In this document: positions 95-46,011 of the stretch, in pieces
Layout: each line of letters starts with the position of its first letter
How positions within the stretch are numbered: the stretch's first letter is position 1
NCBI GenBank assembly: GCA_020364185.1
Contig: GCA_020364185.1_4846.1
Length of the DNA stretch: 47,086 nucleotides
Source of the DNA: a phage
Direction: 5' to 3' (one strand)
Made by a program: the position numbers and the translations under genes
The notes under the pieces: generated by a model
The model's input: the letters and a program-made list of their open reading frames with translations, nothing else
What the model was told of the DNA's origin: nothing
Databases searched by the model: none

Positions 95-937
95 ATGAGC
101 TTATCAATGATTCAAAAACCAAAACCAGCAGCGCCAATCATAACATTGGTTGGTACTCCAGGTGTAGGCAAGACAACTCTTGCGGCGCTATTCCCAAACC
201 CAGTGTTTATTCAGGCTGAAGAGATCACTGGTGTTTTTGATGACTGGGATGATGAAAAGAAACCAGATTCATTTCCTGTACTGAAGCGAGCTGATGCTAA
301 ACGCAAAACAAGCACAAAGGATGATTTGCTGTCACAGCTACGCGCATTAATTACTGAGGAACATAATTACAAAACGCTTGTAATTGACTCAATCACAAGC
401 CTGCATTCAATGTTTGAGCATGAGGTTTGTGAAAATTACGGTGTTGACAACGTAGGTTCTGCGGCTGGTGGTTACAACAAAGGATATATTGTTGTTTCTG
501 AAATGCACGCTGAAATAATAAATGCATGTAAGTATCTTCGCAAAGAAAAAGGGATGAGCATTATTTATCTTGCACACGCAGGTGTTAAAAAGATGAAAAA
601 TCGCCCTGATGCTGATGAATACACTGTTTACACACTTGACATGCATGATGCTTCTGTTTCTGGCTATGTGAATCTTAGCGATGCTGTTATTTACATCAGG
701 AATGAGGAGTTCGTTAAAGGAACTGAGACTGATAAGAAAGGGCAGGTGACCAAGTTTGGAAAGGTTGTTCAGACTGGTCAGCGAGTTCTTATTACATCTG
801 GCGATGGTAGAGTTGGATATGTTAATGCAAAAAACAGATACAACCTTGAGCCTGAAATTCCTTTTGAAAAAGGTGAGAACCCACTTTTGAGTGAGATTAA
901 ATATTATGCATCTCTACGAGATAACCAAGCAGCTTAA
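95..937 (+). CDS. Sak4-like recombination ATPase (AAA_24 / RecA-like P-loop)
   Basis: 280-aa ORF with Walker A GTPGVGKTT near N-terminus and hydrophobic strand followed by D (Walker B-like LVIDSITS); ATG at 95 preceded by GAGAGGA RBS; first gene of a replication operon. Confidence 0.8.
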   Translation: MSLSMIQKPKPAAPIITLVGTPGVGKTTLAALFPNPVFIQAEEITGVFDDWDDEKKPDSFPVLKRADAKRKTSTKDDLLSQLRALITEEHNYKTLVIDSITSLHSMFEHEVCENYGVDNVGSAAGGYNKGYIVVSEMHAEIINACKYLRKEKGMSIIYLAHAGVKKMKNRPDADEYTVYTLDMHDASVSGYVNLSDAVIYIRNEEFVKGTETDKKGQVTKFGKVVQTGQRVLITSGDGRVGYVNAKNRYNLEPEIPFEKGENPLLSEIKYYASLRDNQAA

Positions 938-944
938 TGAACTG

Positions 945-1385
945 ATGGCGATGGAGGATATTCCACGGGAGCAGATTGAAGATACCATCAATCTTATTGA
1001 AGAGGAGTTTGAAGGAAAAGCTGAAATGGTCGCTGCTTACATTCGTGAGCTTGAAGCTGATGAAGCTGGACTTAAATCCGAGATTGACCGTCTTTCTGAG
1101 CGTAAGCGTGTTTTAGTTGCGAAGATTGATAACCTTAAAGATTATCTTCGTCAGAACATGATGGCGTCAGGAAAGACAAATATCAAAGGTAAGTTGTTCA
1201 GTATCACTCTTGGCAAAATGTCACCAGTTCTTGATGTGTTTGTCCCTGTTGAACAGCTTCCTGAGCAGTACCGCGTTGTGAAAGTGTCGGCAGATAACGC
1301 AGCAATTAAAAATGCGATAAAAGCCGGGATTGAAATTAAGGGTTGTGCCATCACCGACGGCAAACCAAAACTGATCATCAAATAA
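945..1385 (+). CDS. Gp157-family-like coiled-coil protein (Sak4-associated); start ambiguous (track start 891 overlaps upstream gene)
   Basis: ORF immediately after Sak4-like gene; charged coiled-coil N-terminal half (EEEFEGKAEMVAAYIRELEADEAGLKSEIDRLSERKR); ATG at 945 is first in-frame ATG after upstream stop at 935-937. Confidence 0.45.
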   Translation: MAMEDIPREQIEDTINLIEEEFEGKAEMVAAYIRELEADEAGLKSEIDRLSERKRVLVAKIDNLKDYLRQNMMASGKTNIKGKLFSITLGKMSPVLDVFVPVEQLPEQYRVVKVSADNAAIKNAIKAGIEIKGCAITDGKPKLIIK

Positions 1386-1402
1386 ATCGAGAGGACACAA
1401 AA

Positions 1403-1924
1403 ATGGGTTTCTGGAATCTTTCTGACGGTAAAGCTGTTGAATCTAAATCTGAATTTGAACTGGGTGGTGGTTTCGAAGTAATTCCTGATGGTAGTCGTGT
1501 TCTTGCTGCCGTTGAAGAATGTAAAGACGACCAGTGGGAAGGTGAGCGATTCTTCAATCTTAAGTGGCGAATCCTTGAGGGTGAGTATAAAAATCGCATC
1601 ATCTTTCAGAAGCTGAAAGTATTTAGCTCAAAAGAAAAGCAGCGCGACAATGCTATCACTATGCTTGCAGCAATTGACGCAAACGCCGGTGGCAAGCTGA
1701 TGGCTTCAGGTAAAGAGCCGACTGATTTTGCTATTGCCAGTGCGCTTGCAAATCGCCCAATGATTCTTCTTCTTCGCGTTTGGGAGTCTGAGGATAAGCA
1801 AAAAACTGGTAACTATGTGGCTGGTGTTTTCAGTCGTCAACAGACAAAAGCATCACCTACTCCTAAGCAATCAGCGCCATCTAACGAGCCTCCGATGGAT
1901 TTCGAAGAAGACGTTCCGTTTTGA
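1403..1924 (+). CDS. SSB-like protein with E. coli SSB-type acidic C-terminal tail (putative ssDNA-binding protein)
   Basis: ATG at 1403 preceded by AAATCGAGAGGACAC leader; C-terminus ...SAPSNEPPMDFEEDVPF closely resembles the E. coli SSB tail ...SNEPPMDFDDDIPF (recalled from memory); N-terminal body not obviously canonical. Confidence 0.55.
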   Translation: MGFWNLSDGKAVESKSEFELGGGFEVIPDGSRVLAAVEECKDDQWEGERFFNLKWRILEGEYKNRIIFQKLKVFSSKEKQRDNAITMLAAIDANAGGKLMASGKEPTDFAIASALANRPMILLLRVWESEDKQKTGNYVAGVFSRQQTKASPTPKQSAPSNEPPMDFEEDVPF

Positions 1925-1940
1925 TTTGGATTAGAATTAC

Positions 1941-1966
1941 GGGGCCATTCGTGGCCCTTTTTTATT
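1941..1966 (+). terminator. intrinsic terminator / attenuator between SSB-like gene and helicase
   Basis: GGGCCA-ttcg-TGGCCC perfect 6-bp stem followed by TTTTTTTAT. Confidence 0.55.
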
Positions 1967-1978
1967 CGAGAGGACACT

Positions 1979-3847
1979 ATGAAAGTACAGCTTAGAACAT
2001 ACCAACAAGAAGCTGTTGATTCTGTTATATGTCATATTCGTTCAAGCGTTTCATCGTGCATGATCATCTTGCCTACAGGGTCTGGGAAAAGCGTTGTTGT
2101 TGCATCAATCGCCGATTGGGTATTTAAAAATACTGGCAAGCGCGTTCTGTGCGTTGCCCCAACAAGCGAGTTAGTTGTACAAAACAGGCAGCGTTTTCTT
2201 TCTCTTACCGGCGAGCCAGCCAGCATGTTCAGTGCAAAGGCTGGCCCCAAAAACCTGCGTCACCCGGTAGTGTTTGGTTCACCAGTTACAATCAAGAACT
2301 CAATAGAGATGTTTGGTGATAAGTATGGTGCTGTCATTATTGATGAATGTGATGGAATAACGCCAACCATTAAATTCATTATTAATGAGATGAAGCGTCG
2401 CAATCCAAAACTGCGTGTTATTGGAATGACCGCTACGCCTTACCGCCTTGGAACTGGATACATCTACAAAGAGCATTACCTCGACGGTCCTACAGATGAA
2501 GAAACAGCCATAGACCCATATTACGACAAAGTCGTTTATGAGCTTGAAGCTAAATTTCTCATCGAAAACGGATACCTTACTCCGCCAGTAACAGAGCCTG
2601 TTTTTGACGAGTATGATACGTCTTGTCTTGAAAAGGATAAGTTGGGTCGGTACACGATAGCTTCAGTTGAAAAGGCGATGGTTGGAAAAGGAAGAAAAAC
2701 ATCACGTATTGTTGAAGATATTATCCGTCGCTCTGTTAATCGGCGAGGAACGATGATTTTTGCCAGCACCAAGAAACACGCTATGGAGATAATGGAGTCA
2801 CTTCCTCCCGGTTCTTATAGTTATGTTTTTGGTGATATGCCGACAACGGAACGCAATAAGGCAATATCAGACTTCAAGGCGCAAAAAGTTAAATACATCG
2901 TTAACCAAAATATCCTTACTGTAGGGGTTGATGTTCCTCATTGTGATCACATAGCAGTAATGAGAGCCACAGAATCACCAAGGCTCTATCAGCAAATAAT
3001 TGGCAGGGGGACGCGTCTTTATGAAGGAAAGGAAGATTTTCTTGTCAGCGATTACGCAGGCAACATTCAGCGCCACTTTTCTGCGACTGGGGACTTATTC
3101 ACTCCAGAAATAAAAGCAACAAGGAAAAAACCATCCGTGCCAATGGATGTCAAATGCCCTCTTTGTGGCTTTATTAATGAATTTGGCGTGCGCCCAAATC
3201 CTGAAAATCTTGAAGTTGACAATGAGGGGTACTGGCTTGATCTGGCTGGTGACAGGGTTATGATTGACATTTTTGATAAATCAGGTGAAAAAGTTGGAAG
3301 AAAGCCAATGCCAGCTCATTTTGGCAGGAGGTGTAAAAACTATGTTATGCAAGGACCATTAAGAGAAATGCACAGATGCACTTATAAATGGTCGGTAAAA
3401 GAATGTCCTGATTGTGGATTTGAAAATGATATAGCGGCAAGAAACTGCACATCATGCGGATCTGAAATCATTGACCCAAACCAAAAGCTAAAAGAAGAAG
3501 CTGACAGGCTTGATTCTTCTCCTTATGCAACCAAGCAATCAAGTGTAACCATGATGAATATCATGAAGCATTACGTTTCAAGCGGAGAAGACTTGGTGCA
3601 CGTGAAATTTGCTATTGAGCACAAGCCATTTTTTGTTAGCAAGTTCTACAATCCAAACTCTGAGAAGGAATGGATGAGGAAGGAGTGGGAAGAGTTTTGC
3701 AGTAAGTGCTTTGATGAATCTGACATGTCAATTGATGATGCAATAGCAAAAAGAGATGAGGCTGTCGCGCCATCAGTGATTATGTTCAGAAGAGATAAGG
3801 GTAGTAAATATTTCAACGTTAAAGGCATGTATTGGGGGGTATTATGA
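1979..3847 (+). CDS. SF2 DEAD/DEAH-box DNA helicase with C-terminal Zn-ribbon motifs
   Basis: 622-aa ORF; Walker A LPTGSGKS, DEAD-box-like IIDECD, SAT-like MTATP; two CxxC pairs (CPLCG, CPDCG / CTSCG) in C-terminal region. Confidence 0.8.
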   Translation: MKVQLRTYQQEAVDSVICHIRSSVSSCMIILPTGSGKSVVVASIADWVFKNTGKRVLCVAPTSELVVQNRQRFLSLTGEPASMFSAKAGPKNLRHPVVFGSPVTIKNSIEMFGDKYGAVIIDECDGITPTIKFIINEMKRRNPKLRVIGMTATPYRLGTGYIYKEHYLDGPTDEETAIDPYYDKVVYELEAKFLIENGYLTPPVTEPVFDEYDTSCLEKDKLGRYTIASVEKAMVGKGRKTSRIVEDIIRRSVNRRGTMIFASTKKHAMEIMESLPPGSYSYVFGDMPTTERNKAISDFKAQKVKYIVNQNILTVGVDVPHCDHIAVMRATESPRLYQQIIGRGTRLYEGKEDFLVSDYAGNIQRHFSATGDLFTPEIKATRKKPSVPMDVKCPLCGFINEFGVRPNPENLEVDNEGYWLDLAGDRVMIDIFDKSGEKVGRKPMPAHFGRRCKNYVMQGPLREMHRCTYKWSVKECPDCGFENDIAARNCTSCGSEIIDPNQKLKEEADRLDSSPYATKQSSVTMMNIMKHYVSSGEDLVHVKFAIEHKPFFVSKFYNPNSEKEWMRKEWEEFCSKCFDESDMSIDDAIAKRDEAVAPSVIMFRRDKGSKYFNVKGMYWGVL

Positions 3848-4299
3848 TTTTTCCAGAAGGCGTTAAGGTATATGGTGATTTAGATTACAGAAACAAAAAA
3901 TGCCCGTCAGAAGATGCTGAGCTGGAGACTTTTGTTAATCAGATAAGGAAGATATATCCTGACTTTGCAAGGGTTATGATTCATGTTCCAAATGAAGGCA
4001 AGCGCAAGGGATATGAAGTTGAAAATCTTAAGAAGAAGGGCGCGTTAAATTTCGGAGCATCAGACATTATCATTAACGGAAAGCAATCATTCGTTATGGA
4101 GATGAAGAGAATGGATCATACTTTATCAAAATGGCAGCCCGGTCAAATGGCATACCTAAAGGCGGCAAAAGAATTAGGTTCCTTCGCGTGTGTATGCCTT
4201 GGTTGGGAGGCTGCAATGATGGCATTTAACGACTGGAGAGCAATGAATTACCCAAACTATAAAAAACCATCAGAGCCATTGATATTTGATGGTTTTTAG
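3844..4299 (+). CDS. VRR-NUC domain nuclease (PD-(D/E)xK)
   Basis: ATG at 3844 overlaps helicase stop (ATGA); preceded by GGGGGG; motif GASDIIINGK...FVMEMKR fits D...E-x-K nuclease core; ends with TAG (amber) at 4297-4299. Confidence 0.7.
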   Translation: MIFPEGVKVYGDLDYRNKKCPSEDAELETFVNQIRKIYPDFARVMIHVPNEGKRKGYEVENLKKKGALNFGASDIIINGKQSFVMEMKRMDHTLSKWQPGQMAYLKAAKELGSFACVCLGWEAAMMAFNDWRAMNYPNYKKPSEPLIFDGF

Positions 4300-16620: not shown

Positions 16621-16697
16621 GGACGCGTAGCTTAATTGGTTAAAGCAACCGACTCATAATCGGCTGATTGAAGGTTCAAATCCGTCCGTGTCCACCA
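16621..16697 (+). tRNA. tRNA-Met (anticodon CAU; could be initiator/elongator Met or lysidine-modified Ile2)
   Basis: manual fold: 7-bp acceptor stem (one G-U), U8, D-arm GCTT/AAGC with GG in loop, anticodon loop CUCAUAA, T-loop TTCAAAT, discriminator A and encoded CCA; two stem mismatches. Confidence 0.6.
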
Positions 16698-17272: not shown

Positions 17273-17764
17273 ATGATTTCAGAGCGTGATTACATAGCAA
17301 TCGCGTCAAGAGTTAAATACGACCCGATTACCGGATTGTTCACCTGGGCTGTAAGTTGCGGGAAAATATCAAAAGGTGATATTGCAAACTATCACAACGA
17401 CGCAGGATACATAACCCTTGGGAAGAAAAGATTAAGGGCGCACCGAGTGGCTTGGTTTATCCATTATGGATATGTCCCTGAGCATGAAATTGATCACATA
17501 AACAATATTCGTGATGACAATAGAATTTCAAATCTGAGGGAGGCCAGTGACTGCGAGAACGCAAGGAACACAAAGATATCTAAATCAAACACGTCTGGAT
17601 ATAAAGGAGTTCATTTTTGCAAGTGCACTGGGAAATGGAGAGCCACGGTAAAGATGCATGGGAAAACCTATCATCTTGGTAGGTTTTCAGACAAAGAAGC
17701 AGCCCATAAAGCCTATTGCAAAAAAGTAGATGAACTGTTTTTGGAGTTCGCAAACCACGGCTAA
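17273..17764 (+). CDS. HNH homing endonuclease with AP2-like DNA-binding domain
   Basis: GGAGG RBS then ATG 17273; motifs RLRAHRVAWFIHYGYVPEHEIDHINNIRDDNRISNLREAS (HNH) and SGYKGVHFCKCTGKWRATVKMHGKTYHLGRFSDKEAAHKAY (AP2-like); opposite strand to surrounding structural genes. Confidence 0.75.
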   Translation: MISERDYIAIASRVKYDPITGLFTWAVSCGKISKGDIANYHNDAGYITLGKKRLRAHRVAWFIHYGYVPEHEIDHINNIRDDNRISNLREASDCENARNTKISKSNTSGYKGVHFCKCTGKWRATVKMHGKTYHLGRFSDKEAAHKAYCKKVDELFLEFANHG

Positions 17765-19793: not shown

Positions 19794-19823
19794 TTGACGT
19801 AGATTGATGAGGTGTTTATAGTT
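19794..19823 (+). promoter_or_regulatory. promoter (TTGACG - 17 bp - TATAGT) with embedded TTGACGTAGATT motif
   Basis: TTGACGTAGATT at 19794-19805, TATAGT about 17 bp downstream of the -35; followed by conserved GAGGTGATAAAAATG leader and ATG 19864. Confidence 0.45.
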
Positions 19824-19863
19824 AGTGGCGTAGAAACAACAATAAATGTTAGAGGTGATAAAA

Positions 19864-20127
19864 ATGGAAATGCGATGGATTGATGTAAACGACGAATTGC
19901 CAGAATCGAAAGACGACTCCGTATTGGTATGCTCTGTTGATGGAAGCAAATACGATGAGAATGGTTTCCCGGAGGGCGGCATTGATATGGTTCATATCCA
20001 AGACTATTTTGATGATATTACTGCTGGTCTTGATGAAAACGGCAATCAGCTTTATACGAAGCGTTACATCGAAATGGGGATAACACATTGGATGTATCTT
20101 CCTGAGTTGCCAGTTTCTGTGAAGTGA
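19864..20127 (+). CDS. DUF551-like small protein
   Basis: 87 aa from ATG 19864 (GAGGTGA RBS); WIDVNDELPE ... VLVC ... THWMYLPELP pattern. Confidence 0.5.
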   Translation: MEMRWIDVNDELPESKDDSVLVCSVDGSKYDENGFPEGGIDMVHIQDYFDDITAGLDENGNQLYTKRYIEMGITHWMYLPELPVSVK

Positions 20128-20149
20128 TAATAAATATTGAGGTGATGAA

Positions 20150-20410
20150 ATGTTTGATATTGATAACCCAAGTGATGACAAAGCCAAGCTGATTGATGCG
20201 GTCGCTTGCAGTTTCGCATCTTGCCAGACAGAAGGTGAATATCAGGTTGTAAAAATGTGCATTGTTGAGTTCTTCTCAGCAATCAACATTCCTGATGATG
20301 AGGCTGTTGATATTCTGCTTAGTGCCGCTGGTAATTGCGCTGAGGCGGACGAATGCATTGATGAACTCGTTGAAGAGTTTGGCGGCATTTTTCAGGGTGA
20401 TGAGGAATAA
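20150..20410 (+). CDS. highly acidic small protein (candidate DNA mimic)
   Basis: 86 aa with about 22 Asp/Glu and 3 Lys; ATG 20150 preceded by GAGGTGATG. Confidence 0.5.
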   Translation: MFDIDNPSDDKAKLIDAVACSFASCQTEGEYQVVKMCIVEFFSAINIPDDEAVDILLSAAGNCAEADECIDELVEEFGGIFQGDEE

Positions 20411-20413
20411 ACA

Positions 20414-21223
20414 ATGAAAACACTAAGCAAAATCTATTCAGACAAAGAAACGCGCAACGGCATCGCTGTGAACAAAACCTATCTCGTGCCAGTTGAACAA
20501 ATCTATCTTGAGCCTGGATACAACATCCGTGAAGCAGATGAGCAGCACGTTGAATATTTCGCGCAGTGCTGGGAATCAGGTCAGCCATTGCCAGCGCTAA
20601 CAGTTATTCCTGATGAGAAAGGAATCCGCATTCTTGATGGTCAGCATCGTTATCTCGGTGCATTGCGTGCCATTGAGCGTGGAGCGCCAATCGTTCGCAT
20701 TGAGTGTAAGGACTTCACTGGCGATGAGGCTGACAAAATTGCTTTCATGGTGTCATCTAGCCAGGGTAAGCAGCTTGACCCGTTTGAACGTGCAAAGGCA
20801 TATACCAGACTGAAAGGCTTTGGCTGGACTAACGAAGAAATCGCCAAGAAGGTAGGCCGCTCAGTATCCGATGTGCAGATGCACCTGTCATTGGGTGATG
20901 TGCCAGCGGAAGTTAAAGCGCGAATCAATGCCGGGCAAATCAGTTATGCAAATGCCGTTGCGGTAACGCGTGAGCATGGCGATGATGCGGTTAAAGTTAT
21001 CGACGAGGCAGTGGAAGAAGCCAAAGCGCAAGGCAAAGATAAAGTCACGGCAAAAGTGCTTAAGTCGAAAAAGGTTAAGCCGGTTGACCGTCTTATTGAG
21101 TTACTCAAACTAGCAGACCATGTGATTCTTCCCGCTGGTCATGTAGTGGCAGAGGATGAGGAATTTATTCAGATTCCTGTTGCTGATATTCACGAGGTTA
21201 TGGCAATTCTGGAGAAGATGTGA
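20414..21223 (+). CDS. ParB-like nuclease domain protein with HTH
   Basis: 269 aa; ParB N-terminal domain signature IRILDGQHRYLGALRA and a central helix-turn-helix-like segment (TNEEIAKKVGRSVSDVQMHL). Confidence 0.7.
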   Translation: MKTLSKIYSDKETRNGIAVNKTYLVPVEQIYLEPGYNIREADEQHVEYFAQCWESGQPLPALTVIPDEKGIRILDGQHRYLGALRAIERGAPIVRIECKDFTGDEADKIAFMVSSSQGKQLDPFERAKAYTRLKGFGWTNEEIAKKVGRSVSDVQMHLSLGDVPAEVKARINAGQISYANAVAVTREHGDDAVKVIDEAVEEAKAQGKDKVTAKVLKSKKVKPVDRLIELLKLADHVILPAGHVVAEDEEFIQIPVADIHEVMAILEKM

Positions 21224-21426
21224 TGAATGAGCGTGATGACAAGTTAATTGCAGGATGGGGCGACCCACTACTGTCTAAGAAGGTTCACTATTTCCGCGAC
21301 GGGAAAATTATCAGTGAATGTGGTAAGTGGATGTTTGGCGGAGGAAGAGAAGATATATCAGCATGGAAGCCTGATGCAATATGCAAACAATGCCTAAGGA
21401 AATTTGAGAAGATGGAGAAGATTTGA
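21220..21426 (+). CDS. hypothetical protein (possible Cys-rich Zn-binding)
   Basis: 68 aa; ATGA overlap with ParB-like gene; Cys spacing ...ECGKW...CKQC. Confidence 0.4.
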   Translation: MMNERDDKLIAGWGDPLLSKKVHYFRDGKIISECGKWMFGGGREDISAWKPDAICKQCLRKFEKMEKI

Positions 21427-21599
21427 TGACGCCAGAACAATTCATCGAAAAACACCTCCGCGTAAAGCTGCCTGACATAGACCAGATGGCAATTGATGCG
21501 GCAATCCAGTATTACAAGCGCAATCAGAGCGCAAAGAAGGGTGGCATTTTTGAAGAATGCCTTAAGGTTGCAAAACAGCACATGATTAAGGTGAAGTGA
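21426..21599 (+). CDS. hypothetical protein (57 aa), translationally coupled
   Basis: hand-translated MTPEQFIEKHLRVKLPDIDQMAIDAAIQYYKRNQSAKKGGIFEECLKVAKQHMIKVK; start codon shares a base with the upstream stop (TGATG at 21424-21428) and its stop TGATG-overlaps the downstream ATG (21597-21601). Confidence 0.3.
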   Translation: MTPEQFIEKHLRVKLPDIDQMAIDAAIQYYKRNQSAKKGGIFEECLKVAKQHMIKVK

Positions 21600-22138
21600 T
21601 GAAACTAAAAATCAGCAAATTATTACTTGAATCAGCATTAATATTTCAGGCGCGCAATGATGTGCGTTACTACCTGAATGGTATCTGCTTCATGCCTGAT
21701 GGCCGCATTGCCTCAACTGACGGTCATCGCGCATTTATTGGTGGCAGCCATGACAACGAGATTGCTGAAAATATAATTGTAAAGGTAAGCAAGTCTCCGA
21801 CAAAGAAATATAACCATGCGATCATCGATACAAAATCTGGAATCGTTACTTATCATTTCGGTCATATAGACACAATGGTTGGTGCTGGTATCTGCGAAGA
21901 GATTGACGGAAGATTCCCTGATATTGATCGCGTGATACCAAAGGAAACGAAAGCAGCAGAGGAAATTGGCTTCAATGCTGGCTATCTGGTTGATATTGAG
22001 AAAGTGGCGAAGCTGTTTAATCCTAAGTTCTGTGGAGTAAAATTTGAACTGAATGGGAACACAAATGCTGCAGTTTGCTGTCTTAGTGCGCCATCTGGCG
22101 AGGCTGCGAAGATTGTTGTTATGCCGATGCGTCTGTAG
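21599..22138 (+). CDS. truncated DNA polymerase III beta sliding-clamp (DnaN) homologue lacking domain I and the middle of domain III
   Basis: 179 aa; colinear matches to E. coli DnaN C-terminal two thirds: NDVRYYLNGICF, STDGHRAF, IDGRFPDIDRVIPK, KFCGVKF and terminal IVVMPMRL (host protein ends YVVMPMRL, from memory). Confidence 0.65.
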   Translation: MKLKISKLLLESALIFQARNDVRYYLNGICFMPDGRIASTDGHRAFIGGSHDNEIAENIIVKVSKSPTKKYNHAIIDTKSGIVTYHFGHIDTMVGAGICEEIDGRFPDIDRVIPKETKAAEEIGFNAGYLVDIEKVAKLFNPKFCGVKFELNGNTNAAVCCLSAPSGEAAKIVVMPMRL

Positions 22139-22143
22139 CAATA

Positions 22144-22172
22144 AAAAGCCCCTTCACGGGGCTTTGTTTTTA
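22144..22172. terminator. bidirectional intrinsic terminator
   Basis: AAGCCCC-ttcac-GGGGCTT stem-loop followed by TGTTTTTAT; between plus operon end (22138) and minus gene end (22173). Confidence 0.65.
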
Positions 22173-24372: not shown

Positions 24373-26126
<1,754 letters not shown>

Positions 26127-36599: not shown

Positions 36600-36607
36600 C
36601 GATGGAT

Positions 36608-37483
36608 ATGAATCAAGTTATTAGCTTTTCAGGCGGCAGGACTTCAGCGTTTATGACACTTGAGGTGCTAAAGATACACCCAGAAGCAGAGGTTATCTTT
36701 ATGGACACTGGAGCAGAGCACCCAAAAACGTATGAGTTTATTCGCAACTTCGCAAAGCACTTCAATGTCGCCGTGACATGTCTTCGTGTGGTGCCAAATC
36801 ATGAGATGCGCAAAGCAAGTACGTATGAGCAGTTAACCGTCGATGAGATTGGCCCGGACCTTGAGCCATGGCGTAGAATGTTGCGCAAGTACGGTCACCC
36901 ATATGTTGGTGGGGCGTTCTGCACTGACCGCATGAAAACAGTCCCATTCACAAAATACTGCAATGAAAAATACGGGAAGAGCAATTATGAGAGATGGCTT
37001 GGTATCAGGGTTGATGAACAAAATCGGTTAAAGAATAGAGGTGACGGTTTTCATTACCTTGCAGACATCAGTGACTTTGAAAAGCAGGATATCCTTGACT
37101 GGTGGTCAATGCAAGAGTTCGACCTTGGCATTAAGGAGCATCTTGGCAATTGCGTTTTCTGCATCAAGAAGAGTCTGCAGAAGGTTGCGCTTGCTGCAAA
37201 GGATGAGCCTGAACTTGCCGCTGAATTTTGGCAGATGATTCAGGCTGAAGATAAAAAATCAGACAAGATAATGTATCGTTCAAACAGAAGCCTTGGCGAC
37301 GTTATAGCTTTATTTAACGATGCAAGCAGGGATGAACTGGCATCACGGATGACGTCAATGCGCCAGTACGATACTGGCTCATGCAGTGAGAGCTGCGAGG
37401 CGTTTGGTGGGACCGAGAATTCAATGAAGCATTACTTAAATGACGCTGGTGATGATTATGAAAATCGTGGCGATGACTCATGA
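36608..37483 (+). CDS. PAPS reductase-like PP-loop ATPase family protein
   Basis: N-terminal ISFSGGRTSA PP-loop; start at ATG 36608 (8 nt after AAGGAG) preferred over 36602. Confidence 0.7.
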   Translation: MNQVISFSGGRTSAFMTLEVLKIHPEAEVIFMDTGAEHPKTYEFIRNFAKHFNVAVTCLRVVPNHEMRKASTYEQLTVDEIGPDLEPWRRMLRKYGHPYVGGAFCTDRMKTVPFTKYCNEKYGKSNYERWLGIRVDEQNRLKNRGDGFHYLADISDFEKQDILDWWSMQEFDLGIKEHLGNCVFCIKKSLQKVALAAKDEPELAAEFWQMIQAEDKKSDKIMYRSNRSLGDVIALFNDASRDELASRMTSMRQYDTGSCSESCEAFGGTENSMKHYLNDAGDDYENRGDDS

Positions 37484-43046: not shown

Positions 43047-43262
43047 ATGTACAGGTTTGGTAGCGCAATGGCTGAGGTGTATGAGTTTGTTAGCGGGATG
43101 TCGATTGGAGAGGTGCGATTTTTTGTGGTAGATGATTTCCGTGCCAATAACAGTATTGAAAAATTCAGGGCGAGCCTGTGCTGTGTTGCGAAAGATAATT
43201 CGTGGCTTTTTGTAACCAGAAAGATGGAAGAAGGCGAAGTGTCTGTTCGGAGGATTAAATGA
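43047..43262 (+). CDS. hypothetical protein
   Basis: 71 aa from ATG 43047 (GGAGG RBS); stop overlaps primase start (ATGA). Confidence 0.4.
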   Translation: MYRFGSAMAEVYEFVSGMSIGEVRFFVVDDFRANNSIEKFRASLCCVAKDNSWLFVTRKMEEGEVSVRRIK

Positions 43263-45592
43263 TGATTGGTTATGAAGATTACCGCAAATGTGGCTTCCCT
43301 ATTATTGGAATCCATGCAATGGATATCGACCGCAATTGCACATGCGGTGATCCAGAATGCAATGCTGCCGGTAAGCATCCGGTTATGAGTAACTGGCAGC
43401 TTGGAGTTATATGGGCTGATGACCAGATTGAAAATATGGCTGAATATGGTCAATTGCAGTCATTCGGTGTCCTTGTGAATGGTTATCTGGTAGTTGATAT
43501 TGATCCACGCAACGGAGGTAATGATGGATATGAATCACTTTGTGATGCCTTAGACGTAGAGCTTGCTGACGAAGCTGGCTTTACTGTTAAGACTGGTGGT
43601 GGTGGTCGCCACATCTATTACAAACTTCCTGAAGGAATAAAGCTGCGCTCTCATGACAGAAGGTTTAAGGGTATTGACTTTAAATCATCTGGTTTTGTTG
43701 TTGGCTGCGGCTCATTCCATAAGTCAGGTAACTTTTATGAAGCTGAGCATGGCTCTCCTTCAGAGATAACTGAATGCCCTTCTGAACTTATTGAGCTTTT
43801 GTTGCGTCCTGAGAGAACGGAAGACGAGGTTTTCACGCTTGATAGTAAAAATTACAGCATTGCCGAAATGGAGGATATGCTCAAATACATCAAAGATGGT
43901 GATGAGTATGACCCATGGCTTCATGTGGGCATGGCTATCCACGAAGCTACAGAAGGCAATGGTTTTGAACTTTGGGATAGGTGGTCATCGCAGTTCAGCA
44001 AGTACAGAGCTGAAGAAATGGACGCAAAATGGCATTCCTTTGGAAAGGACGGTGTTAACGAAAAGATAACCGAAGCAACGCTGGTTTATCTCGCGCAAGA
44101 GGGAGGGTGGGTAAGGCAAGTAACTTTTGAGGCTACTCCAGAGGAAATTGAGAAACTTGAGTCTTTCGAACGAGAGATGGCAATGGGTGTTGGTGAATGC
44201 CCTGTAGAGTACAAAAGTGTTGATGTCCGTTATCCGCCTGGATTTGTTGGTCGCCTTACGGCGTGGATTAATAAGAACTGTGCAGAGAAGCGAGAGAATA
44301 TTGCAGCACTTGCTGCATTGCACGCTGCATCCATGATTTGTGGGGCGTCATCTGATATTTATCTTACAAACAGGAAAGCCTTACCAAACCTGTTTGCTGT
44401 TGGTATAGCTGGTTCAGGTTCAGGTAAGGGTGATGTCCTTGCTGCGCTACAAAAGATAATTGATTGCTCAGGATTGAGTAAGACTGTCGCCGGTAAGATA
44501 CGTTCAGAGCGTGCGATATATGAAGGTCTTTGCGCTAACCAGATGTTTAATATCATCATGGATGAGATTGGGATAAAACTTGGGAGTGTTGTTGGTCAGA
44601 AAGTAAGCGAGTACAACATGGCAACCGCTGGTGCGATCATGGAGGCTTACACGTCAGAAGTTCTTTATTGTGACCAGCGGGTTACTGAGGATTTCATTAA
44701 GTCTTTCGAAAAGAGAAAGGCTATGCTGTTGATGGCTATTGAGGAAAATGAGATACAGGCAGACCCCGTTGACATTAAGTGTCAGTTTGATGATGTGATA
44801 AACAGAATTGACGGAGCTATAAGGAATCCATTTTTTTCAATCTTTGGTGTGTCTACTGATGATCAGTTTAAGCGACTTATTACTGAAGAAAACATTAAGT
44901 CAGGTCTTATGGGTCGTGCAATGATTATGCAGGAGTTACAGGAGATTGCTGACGAAAACGAAAACGTCAACTACTGTGATCTACCTATGGATATGCAACT
45001 GACCATAAAAACAATAATAAATGGAGGAACAGCTGGGCACAAAAACTGGACAGACTCAATAATCAGTCAAAAAGAAAGACGGATTATAAAAGCTACGCCT
45101 GAAGTTTCTCAGCTCGCTAAGGAGTTCTTCTCATGGATTAAAACCGTTGCAAGAAAGCATGTAGAAAATGGTACTGGTTATCACCCATTGATAAACAGAT
45201 GCGCCGTGAAGGTGGCAAAGATTGCTGGCATTCTCGCGTGCGATACTGGCGTCATAACCATGGAGCACTTGAGGTATGCGGTAGCATTAACAATTAAATC
45301 AACAAGCGATCTGATGATGCGTGCTGACAGTATCGCCGGAGCGAAGTCTAAAGCTATGGAAGAACGAATTGAAGGTATTTTCTCCATGGTTAAAGAATAT
45401 GTGAAGCGTGGAATGACCAAAACAGCAATGGTTAGAGGGGTAGCAAAAGAAGGTGGGTATAAACGTGCTGATGTCGAGAGGTGCGTAGAGAAGTTGTTAT
45501 CAGATGGTATTATTTGCATTGATGAAAATGCAAAAAGAACATCTCACAACGTAATAATTTACAAATTAACAAATGATGAGGTTGAGATATGA
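43259..45592 (+). CDS. primase-polymerase (AEP-type) replication protein with central P-loop NTPase region
   Basis: 777 aa; N-terminal Prim-Pol-like motifs (VVDIDPRNGG, TVKTGGGGRHIYYKLP, GIDFKSSGFVVGCGSFHKSGNFYE), PriCT-like WLHVGMAIH...LWDRWS, Walker A GIAGSGSGKG. Confidence 0.65.
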   Translation: MMIGYEDYRKCGFPIIGIHAMDIDRNCTCGDPECNAAGKHPVMSNWQLGVIWADDQIENMAEYGQLQSFGVLVNGYLVVDIDPRNGGNDGYESLCDALDVELADEAGFTVKTGGGGRHIYYKLPEGIKLRSHDRRFKGIDFKSSGFVVGCGSFHKSGNFYEAEHGSPSEITECPSELIELLLRPERTEDEVFTLDSKNYSIAEMEDMLKYIKDGDEYDPWLHVGMAIHEATEGNGFELWDRWSSQFSKYRAEEMDAKWHSFGKDGVNEKITEATLVYLAQEGGWVRQVTFEATPEEIEKLESFEREMAMGVGECPVEYKSVDVRYPPGFVGRLTAWINKNCAEKRENIAALAALHAASMICGASSDIYLTNRKALPNLFAVGIAGSGSGKGDVLAALQKIIDCSGLSKTVAGKIRSERAIYEGLCANQMFNIIMDEIGIKLGSVVGQKVSEYNMATAGAIMEAYTSEVLYCDQRVTEDFIKSFEKRKAMLLMAIEENEIQADPVDIKCQFDDVINRIDGAIRNPFFSIFGVSTDDQFKRLITEENIKSGLMGRAMIMQELQEIADENENVNYCDLPMDMQLTIKTIINGGTAGHKNWTDSIISQKERRIIKATPEVSQLAKEFFSWIKTVARKHVENGTGYHPLINRCAVKVAKIAGILACDTGVITMEHLRYAVALTIKSTSDLMMRADSIAGAKSKAMEERIEGIFSMVKEYVKRGMTKTAMVRGVAKEGGYKRADVERCVEKLLSDGIICIDENAKRTSHNVIIYKLTNDEVEI

Positions 45593-46011
45593 TCAATTAC
45601 AAGTATCTGGTGATGAGAGGTTTGTATGACTATTTTGAGTCAGAAAATCCTGAGCGCGCACATGATAACGCAATATCCATGATGACAGGGAAACACCTGA
45701 TGGAAGTTTACTACTGGAAAATGCCCGTATTCCGCTGCAATATGGGTATCTGCATTGATGATGACGTACTGTTTTGTCGAATACAATATGAAAACAATGT
45801 AGGTATAGTGACAGCATCGTACAGGGATGTTGCAAGAAAATCCGGGAACTGGCATCCAAGCGAAGTTTTTGCGGGTGACGCACTATTTAATTTCTGTAAG
45901 GCGTTTGGTGTTTTGTATGAGGATGTAAGCAAAGAGTATAGCGGAAGGCGTGAGAAAGATAGCTTGAGTTCTAAAGGTGTTACTAACTACAAGGATAAAA
46001 ACCATGTGTAA
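45589..46011 (+). CDS. hypothetical protein
   Basis: 140-aa ORF, ATGA overlap with primase gene. Confidence 0.4.
   Translation: MINYKYLVMRGLYDYFESENPERAHDNAISMMTGKHLMEVYYWKMPVFRCNMGICIDDDVLFCRIQYENNVGIVTASYRDVARKSGNWHPSEVFAGDALFNFCKAFGVLYEDVSKEYSGRREKDSLSSKGVTNYKDKNHV

Follow-up and report, generated by a model that had tools for sequence, protein, structure and literature searches.

The window, namely the whole stretch of 47,086 nucleotides that was analyzed, encodes a 179-aa protein that is a truncated homologue of the bacterial beta sliding clamp (DnaN). Domain I is absent, the native ring interface is lost and the pocket that accepts clamp-binding motifs appears to be retained. Our preferred reading, to which we assign a probability of about 0.5, is that of a non-ring pseudo-clamp, probably a homodimer, which would dock host proteins bearing clamp-binding motifs and most plausibly recruit host replication enzymes to the phage DNA. 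The gene (Table 1) adds one more member to a large and old phage family that is known and annotated but uncharacterized.

The similarity of the 179-aa protein with E. coli DnaN is far beyond chance (BLASTP, E-value = 2e-14) and, when all PDB chains were searched with phmmer, the best matches were all beta clamps (E-values from 8e-13 to 2e-12). The original prediction of a truncated DnaN homologue devoid of domain I is thereby supported. In the phmmer alignment, residues 7-155 of the query fall on DnaN 136-289, while a second stretch comprising residues 119-179 falls on DnaN 313-366. Concerning the profile models of DnaN, the expected similarity was recovered by TIGR00663 in terms of E-value (7e-9) but not in terms of score (35 bits, under the cutoff of 137.65). 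The Pfam domains PF02767 (16.4 bits) and PF02768 (15 bits) are also both under their cutoffs of 27, and the model of the DnaN N-terminal domain had no match in the 179-aa protein in the Pfam search. The protein consequently falls outside DnaN when this is defined as a three-domain protein of ~366 aa scoring above the curated cutoffs. The phage-specific family phrog_3007 was matched along the entire protein (E-value = 9.8e-61; residues 1-179 span positions 1-186 of the 190 in the profile), and the match with the processivity-factor family phrog_947 was weak. At the level of structure, a Foldseek search with the predicted model returned only clamps (E-value = 1.6e-13, probability 1.0), pointing to the DnaN fold that had been proposed. 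Furthermore, the BFVD monomer models of other family members, which are independent of ours, fit one copy of the prediction with TM-scores of 0.79-0.84. Sequence and predicted fold therefore both place the protein among the homologues of clamp domains.

Residues 116-155 of the query can be aligned in two competing ways, since each clamp domain consists of paralogous halves. We placed residues 116-179 on DnaN 313-366, because three sources agree on it, namely the MAFFT alignment with family members, the Pfam coordinates (the C-terminal part occupies positions 68-121 of the 121 positions of DNA_pol3_beta_3) and the motif matches of query to DnaN (EIGFNAGYLVD to EIGFNVSYVLD and VVMPMRL to VVMPMRL). 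The predicted secondary structure leads to the same placement. It follows that, as far as the alignments can tell, the missing piece of domain III is its N-terminal half (DnaN ~251-312, ~62 residues). This revises the view that ~55 residues had been lost from the middle of that domain, and the second helix of domain II (alpha2) has to be added to the losses, since a loop of 9 residues (query 64-72) takes its place in the AlphaFold2 (AF2) model. Likewise, the pairing of KFCGVKF with KFRGVRL that had been proposed stems from the other possible alignment, in which the paralogous first half is matched. Each copy in the AF2 model is composed, in order, of a strand (2-6), a helix (7-15), three strands, a strand (59-63), the loop (64-72), three strands, the linker and a C-terminal half-domain III formed by a strand (122-126), a helix (127-140) and three strands. 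The model thus describes a protein of three structural half-domains, in which one channel-lining helix is lost as well. Of the pocket motifs, DVRYYLNG (21-28), TDGHR (40-44) and the first residues of DGRFPD (103-108) are found in the domain II part, and IGFNxxYL (123-130) and VVMPMRL (173-179) in the half-domain III.

Table 1. Positions of the short beta-clamp homologue gene, its parts and the surrounding operon elements in the window.
Feature	Position	Strand	Evidence or remarks
Short beta-clamp homologue gene, 179 aa, stop codon included	21599..22138	+	ORF; DnaN homology; phrog_3007; dN/dS
TGATG overlap of the start codon with the stop codon of the 58-aa ORF upstream (21423..21599)	21597..21601	+	
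Residues 1-109, equivalent of DnaN domain II (DnaN ~130-244)	21599..21925	+	
Inter-domain linker, residues 107-115, PDIDRVIPK	21917..21943	+	Pocket equivalents of P242, R246 and V247
Residues 116-179, C-terminal half of DnaN domain III (DnaN 313-366)	21944..22135	+	Pfam, phmmer, MAFFT, AF2
Intrinsic terminator, bidirectional: hairpin (AAAGCCCC-loop-GGGGCTTT) with a T run on each strand	22145..22165	both	
Upstream part of the rightward operon	19794..21599	+	Promoter-like site, small ORFs, ParB-like HTH gene, 68-aa and 58-aa ORFs
Promoter-like site	19794-19822	+	Consensus match only
ParB-like HTH protein gene	20414..21223	+	HTH_ParB and KorB domains, phrog_1033

The partner-binding pocket of the E. 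coli clamp comprises subsite I (R152, L155, T172, G174, H175, R176, L177, P242, R246, V247, V360, and M362) and subsite II (H175, N320, Y323, V344, M362, P363, M364, and R365) (PMC11139829). When these positions were mapped through the family alignment, 16 of the 18 distinct residues were found to be identical to E. coli. The two differences are L177 to A45 and V344 to A157, with V344 being one of the two pocket positions that are non-conserved among clamps (PMC11139829). In an alignment of 131 sequences (the query and 130 representatives of clusters at 50% identity), the equivalents of R152, L155, T172, G174, H175, P242, Y323, M362, and P363 are each conserved in at least 90%. No columns of the family alignment are better conserved than those of the pocket motifs, and selection is therefore centered on the pocket. 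These data speak, on the basis of residue identity, for the predicted retention of the pocket. The HC6 orthologue (locus L001, 20001-20537), which is the closest relative with 93% identity, carries the substitutions H43R and R111H at two pocket positions (H175 and R246 in E. coli) that show strong conservation elsewhere in the family.

In the native ring, I78 and F106 with I272 and L273 form the hydrophobic core of the interface (PMC11139829). All four residues align to gaps in the family alignment and the regions that contain them are absent. Since both faces of the native head-to-tail interface are missing, a canonical beta ring can be neither formed nor joined through it, in agreement with what had been predicted. 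The suggestion that the fragment might cap host beta monomers through the native interface becomes unlikely for the same reason, as the interface residues are missing. Compared with E. coli DnaN (PDB 2POL/1MMI; PF00712/PF02767/PF02768; TIGR00663), the phage protein is homologous in sequence and fold to domain II and to the second half of domain III, including the pocket and the MPMRL end. It differs from the 366 aa of DnaN in lacking domain I, the first half of domain III and the second helix of domain II, in lacking the hydrophobic residues of the dimer interface, in scoring under the thresholds of all DnaN models and in belonging to a basic family, whereas DnaN is acidic.

The oligomeric state was approached with AF2 on linker-joined copies with paired alignments. 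For two copies, pTM was 0.80, with pLDDT of ~90 per copy and <50 in the linker. For four copies, pTM was 0.46 with lower pLDDT (from an alignment of 22 sequences only), values close to those expected of two separate dimers. The modeling indicates a dimer that is placed with confidence and no confident tetramer, although joining by linkers may bias the packing and the dimer is judged from pTM and pLDDT. Regarding charge, the median pI of the family is 8.1, that of the query is 7.6 and that of E. coli beta is 5.25. Lysine or arginine is conserved in the family alignment at positions 19, 65, 69, 135, 138, and 143. The helix 127-140 is amphipathic, with residues 135 and 138 on its polar face, and the corresponding helix of beta is among those lining the DNA channel. 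Kazlauskas and Venclovas (PMC3201878) used a raised pI to recognize those clamp homologues that bind directly to DNA and need no loader.

The ORF, its TGATG overlap and all the peptides on which the original prediction was based (NDVRYYLNGICF, STDGHRAF, IDGRFPDIDRVIPK, KFCGVKF, and IVVMPMRL) are present. The TGA of the 58-aa ORF occupies 21597-21599 and the ATG of the gene begins at 21599, with a Shine-Dalgarno-like AAGGTGA directly 5' of the ORF. The ORF list also contains an alternative GTG start, 3 bases 5' of the ATG. The stop and start codons of the 68-aa and 58-aa ORFs overlap too. A perfect terminator hairpin closes the operon 7 nt 3' of the stop codon and divides this rightward operon from the leftward capsid operon. 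Comparison of the gene with its HC6 and swi2 orthologues gave dN/dS values of 0.11-0.16 (dS 0.30-0.55), showing that the gene is live and under purifying selection. Translational coupling, the terminator and the low dN/dS together make the gene look expressed and selected, as had been argued against a dead remnant. The two small upstream ORFs were considered as carriers of the missing half-domain and rejected by inspection, as from their sequences one looks helical and the other cysteine-rich, and they are not conserved beside the gene elsewhere. A sigma-70-like site is found inside the gene at 21750-21777 (+) (ATGACA, 16 nt spacer, TATAAT; 11 of 12 positions). It is probably a chance occurrence, the count of such sites in the region being no higher than in shuffled sequence. 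The operon also includes the ParB-like gene, and Pseudomonas phage TC7 likewise has a "chromosome partitioning protein" upstream of its short-clamp homologue (locus L009, 1910-2776).

The window is a complete-looking siphovirus genome of ~47 kb, near Escherichia phage HC6 and Swiduovirus swi2. Its replication/recombination module extends over the window ends (95..4299 and 43259..46011, + strand) and encodes a Sak4-like ATPase, Gp157, a DUF669 SSB, an SF2 helicase and a PrimPol/D5-type primase-helicase. No DNA polymerase was detected among the nine replication-type ORFs scanned in the window, and none is annotated in the relatives swi2 and Skarpretter. The phage should therefore depend on the host polymerase. 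In other carriers, the homologue adjoins phage replication, nuclease or polymerase genes (LIET2, BcepC6B, Skarpretter, and yong1). Specifically, in the lambdoid Hafnia phage yong1 it is established between cII and the O/P-like replication genes, while in one Acinetobacter phage and one Vibrio phage it is located among tail genes. There is no neighbor gene common to the nine contexts compared. The Dhillonvirus phages and BcepC6B carry PolA, which rules out that carriers always lack a polymerase. A search with PADLOC gave no hits that would link the gene to anti-phage defense, and blastn found no nucleotide match in 5,426 E. coli genomes, so that the gene is neither a recent acquisition from the host nor one that is common among E. 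coli prophages.

By tblastn, homologues were found in 291 of 50,697 phage records, with hosts including Salmonella, Escherichia, Vibrio, Klebsiella, Acinetobacter, Burkholderia, Pseudomonas, and others. The records label them as "DNA polymerase III beta subunit," "hypothetical protein" or "RusA-like Holliday junction resolvase," the first of which is used in GenBank for Swiduovirus, Dhillonvirus, Skarprettervirus, Lietduovirus, and other members of this same family. Among 1.84 billion cluster representatives there were 2,122 matches, and 130 of the best 150 of these are 160-225 aa long and aligned end to end. Among the matches listed, DnaN-sized full-length proteins first appear near an E-value of 1e-12. 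Relatives down to ~30% identity, hundreds of them full-length, keep the length, the ends and the architecture, and the 179-aa protein shares with the short family its size (~165-225 aa) and its composition of domain II plus half-domain III. It belongs with the short phage homologues of the Pol III beta subunit (PHROG 3007), which were already noted in 2011, when 5 of 12 phage beta homologues were found to be shorter (Kazlauskas and Venclovas, NAR, PMC3201878). The novelty that had been attributed to the gene was accordingly overstated. In that survey, the short homologues are said to cover the second and third domains, whereas the present protein has half of domain III and a domain II without one helix. 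Genome papers merely list the gene; the searched literature, consisting of genome descriptions and the 2011 survey, contained no functional or structural study of any family member and no binding, DNA-contact or phenotype data. The corrected architecture, the combination of an almost fully conserved pocket with a lost ring interface and the predicted dimer are not stated in the literature covered, and they make the hypothesis sharper and open to testing. Phage beta-like proteins of intermediate length (217-250 aa) are also found among the BFVD matches, including the "PolIII beta-like processivity factor" of Bacillus phage Sam46, and truncated clamp homologues may come in several architectures.

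Comparison with other viral systems can assist in placing this family. UL42, UL44 and BMRF1, the non-ring processivity factors of herpesviruses, each contain two full clamp domains and associate with the polymerase of their own virus, without detectable sequence relation to the phage protein. According to the models, the latter would nevertheless share with UL42 and UL44 a clamp fold without ring closure, considering its predicted fold, the absent native interface and the lack of a confident tetramer. Other phage proteins that target the host clamp system are Gp168 of Staphylococcus phage Twort, which is bound to beta (PDB 7EVP), as well as ORF240 of phage G1 and gp8 of phage N4 acting on delta. 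They are phage-encoded like our protein, which would likewise act on the clamp/loader network; all three are small, unrelated clamp/loader binders, whereas the short phage protein imitates the clamp itself. Full-length beta clamps are also encoded by phages, often near replication genes, such as KL1 gp28 (386 aa, similar to phage 73 ORF027) and those of Ma-LMM01 and RSL1. They differ from the short protein in having three domains, presumably forming rings, and some are accompanied by clamp-loader genes.

The host proteins that bind in the E. coli beta pocket are Pol III alpha and epsilon, delta, Hda, Pol I, II, IV and V, MutS, and MutL. According to the reading that we prefer, the retained elements (domain II without its second helix, which lines the channel, and the second half of domain III) would be exactly those that build the pocket. 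The protein, unable to build or join a canonical ring, would pair as a probable homodimer, as modeled. Its conserved pocket, judging by its residues, would dock host proteins with clamp-binding motifs, and its conserved basic residues may contact DNA. Host replication enzymes could in this manner be tethered to the phage DNA or replisome without a clamp loader, by analogy with herpesvirus UL42/UL44. Three observations favor recruitment over sequestration, namely the lack of a detectable polymerase in this phage, the proximity of the gene to replication genes in several phages and the basic character of the family. As some carriers (Dhillonvirus, BcepC6B) encode PolA, the role cannot be simply that of replacing the clamp of a missing polymerase. 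Against the pseudo-clamp, the host's own beta clamp is abundant and the gain from a second tether is questionable. Additionally, the position of the gene varies, as shown by its place among tail genes in the Acinetobacter and Vibrio phages, and the pI of the query itself is only 7.6.

A possible, though rather unlikely, alternative is that the pseudo-clamp is a decoy which soaks up host clamp-binding-motif proteins and shuts down host replication or repair that is harmful to the phage. The clamp-loader delta would be its prime target, along with Hda, translesion polymerases and mismatch-repair proteins. Pocket conservation fits this explanation equally well, phages attack the clamp system with other proteins (e.g., Twort Gp168, PDB 7evp), and delta binds monomeric beta ~50 times tighter than the ring (PMC11139829). 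Delta also contacts a five-residue loop of beta, described without residue numbers (PMC11139829). Carriers with PolA could afford to disable host Pol III; the present phage and several other carriers without an annotated polymerase, however, presumably rely on the Pol III holoenzyme of the host and on its loader, which would render sequestration self-defeating. We place the loop contacted by delta in the missing first half of domain III, a further point against delta as the target.

Distinctly unlikely is the explanation by which the protein serves as a hub for a phage-encoded partner, with the pocket receiving a clamp-binding-like motif of a phage polymerase, primase-helicase, nuclease or late-transcription factor. 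Analogous cases are T4 gp45 with gp33/gp55, and MuC of phage Mu, which uses the host clamp for late transcription. The location of the gene next to replication, nuclease or polymerase genes in the four phages named above is consistent with such a partner, and the use of the clamp by Mu is documented (PMC12867686). On the other hand, a strict clamp-binding motif was found in none of the real genes of the window. The strict and loose scans returned only spurious antisense ORFs, plus an N-terminal QVNVL in the structural protein at 24840..26126, which is probably a chance match. The PolA of Dhillonvirus and BcepC6B also had no clamp-binding pentamer, and a loose hexamer pattern matched only a single internal QMDVEL in BcepC6B gp32. 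Moreover, no neighbor is conserved across the nine contexts, and the pocket is nearly identical to that of the host, the latter arguing for ligands of host type instead.

The half-domain count, three per subunit, also raises the idea of a DNA-encircling clamp built anew, in which the orphan half-domains would pair into a pseudo-domain and two dimers would close a 12-half-domain ring of D2 symmetry with pockets on both faces. We regard it as very unlikely: the tetrameric ring is unsupported by the four-copy linker fusion, which is weak negative evidence given its 22 sequences and its linkers, and the protein lacks the second helix of domain II, a helix that borders the DNA channel in beta. A broader and doubtful proposal is that the short beta family constitutes a new architectural class of clamp-fold protein, whose orphan half-domains would self-pair into an open, loader-independent pseudo-clamp or even into a four-subunit ring with pockets on both faces, with which phages would capture the host Pol III holoenzyme by way of the conserved pocket and commit it to phage DNA. 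If true, it would be a takeover of host Pol III through a pseudo-clamp, which has not been described for any phage.

The "RusA-like Holliday junction resolvase" label is carried by swi2 gp73 (locus L010, 17516-18052), BcepC6B gp31 (locus L008, 4058-4573), phrog_3007 and many RefSeq records. The RusA family is absent among the Pfam matches of the protein even at E-values up to 10, and all structural matches are clamps. The label of PHROGs and RefSeq is a propagating annotation error, which our work flags in the RefSeq phage records. That the gene is a captured dnaN in decay, or that it encodes a resolvase of the RusA type, is supported only by this label and by the Pfam clamp-domain scores under threshold, and can be dismissed in view of the purifying selection, the hundreds of full-length relatives of shared architecture, the lack of RusA matches and the lack of nucleotide similarity in the E. 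coli genomes searched.

Many phages that infect Gram-negative bacteria replicate with host Pol III, and the way in which they win this scarce enzyme is poorly understood. A short clamp that keeps the pocket and discards the ring parts is a testable candidate for a takeover factor, by recruitment or by sequestration. The pocket is also an antibiotic target, and a natural, minimal pocket fragment of 179 aa could serve binding assays and structural work.

Three other loci of the window were annotated. An endonuclease gene with HNH_3 and AP2 domains, probably of the homing type, is located at 17273..17764 (+), alone among head and tail genes of the minus strand. The major tail gene region is adjoined at 16621-16697 (+) by a gene for tRNA-Met (anticodon CAT), and a tRNA is established at the same place in HC6 (annotated as Ile) and in swi2 (annotated as Met). 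Finally, the gene at 36602..37483 (+) encodes a 293-aa protein with a PAPS-reductase domain (E-value = 1.5e-10), which may be a DNA or nucleotide modification enzyme.
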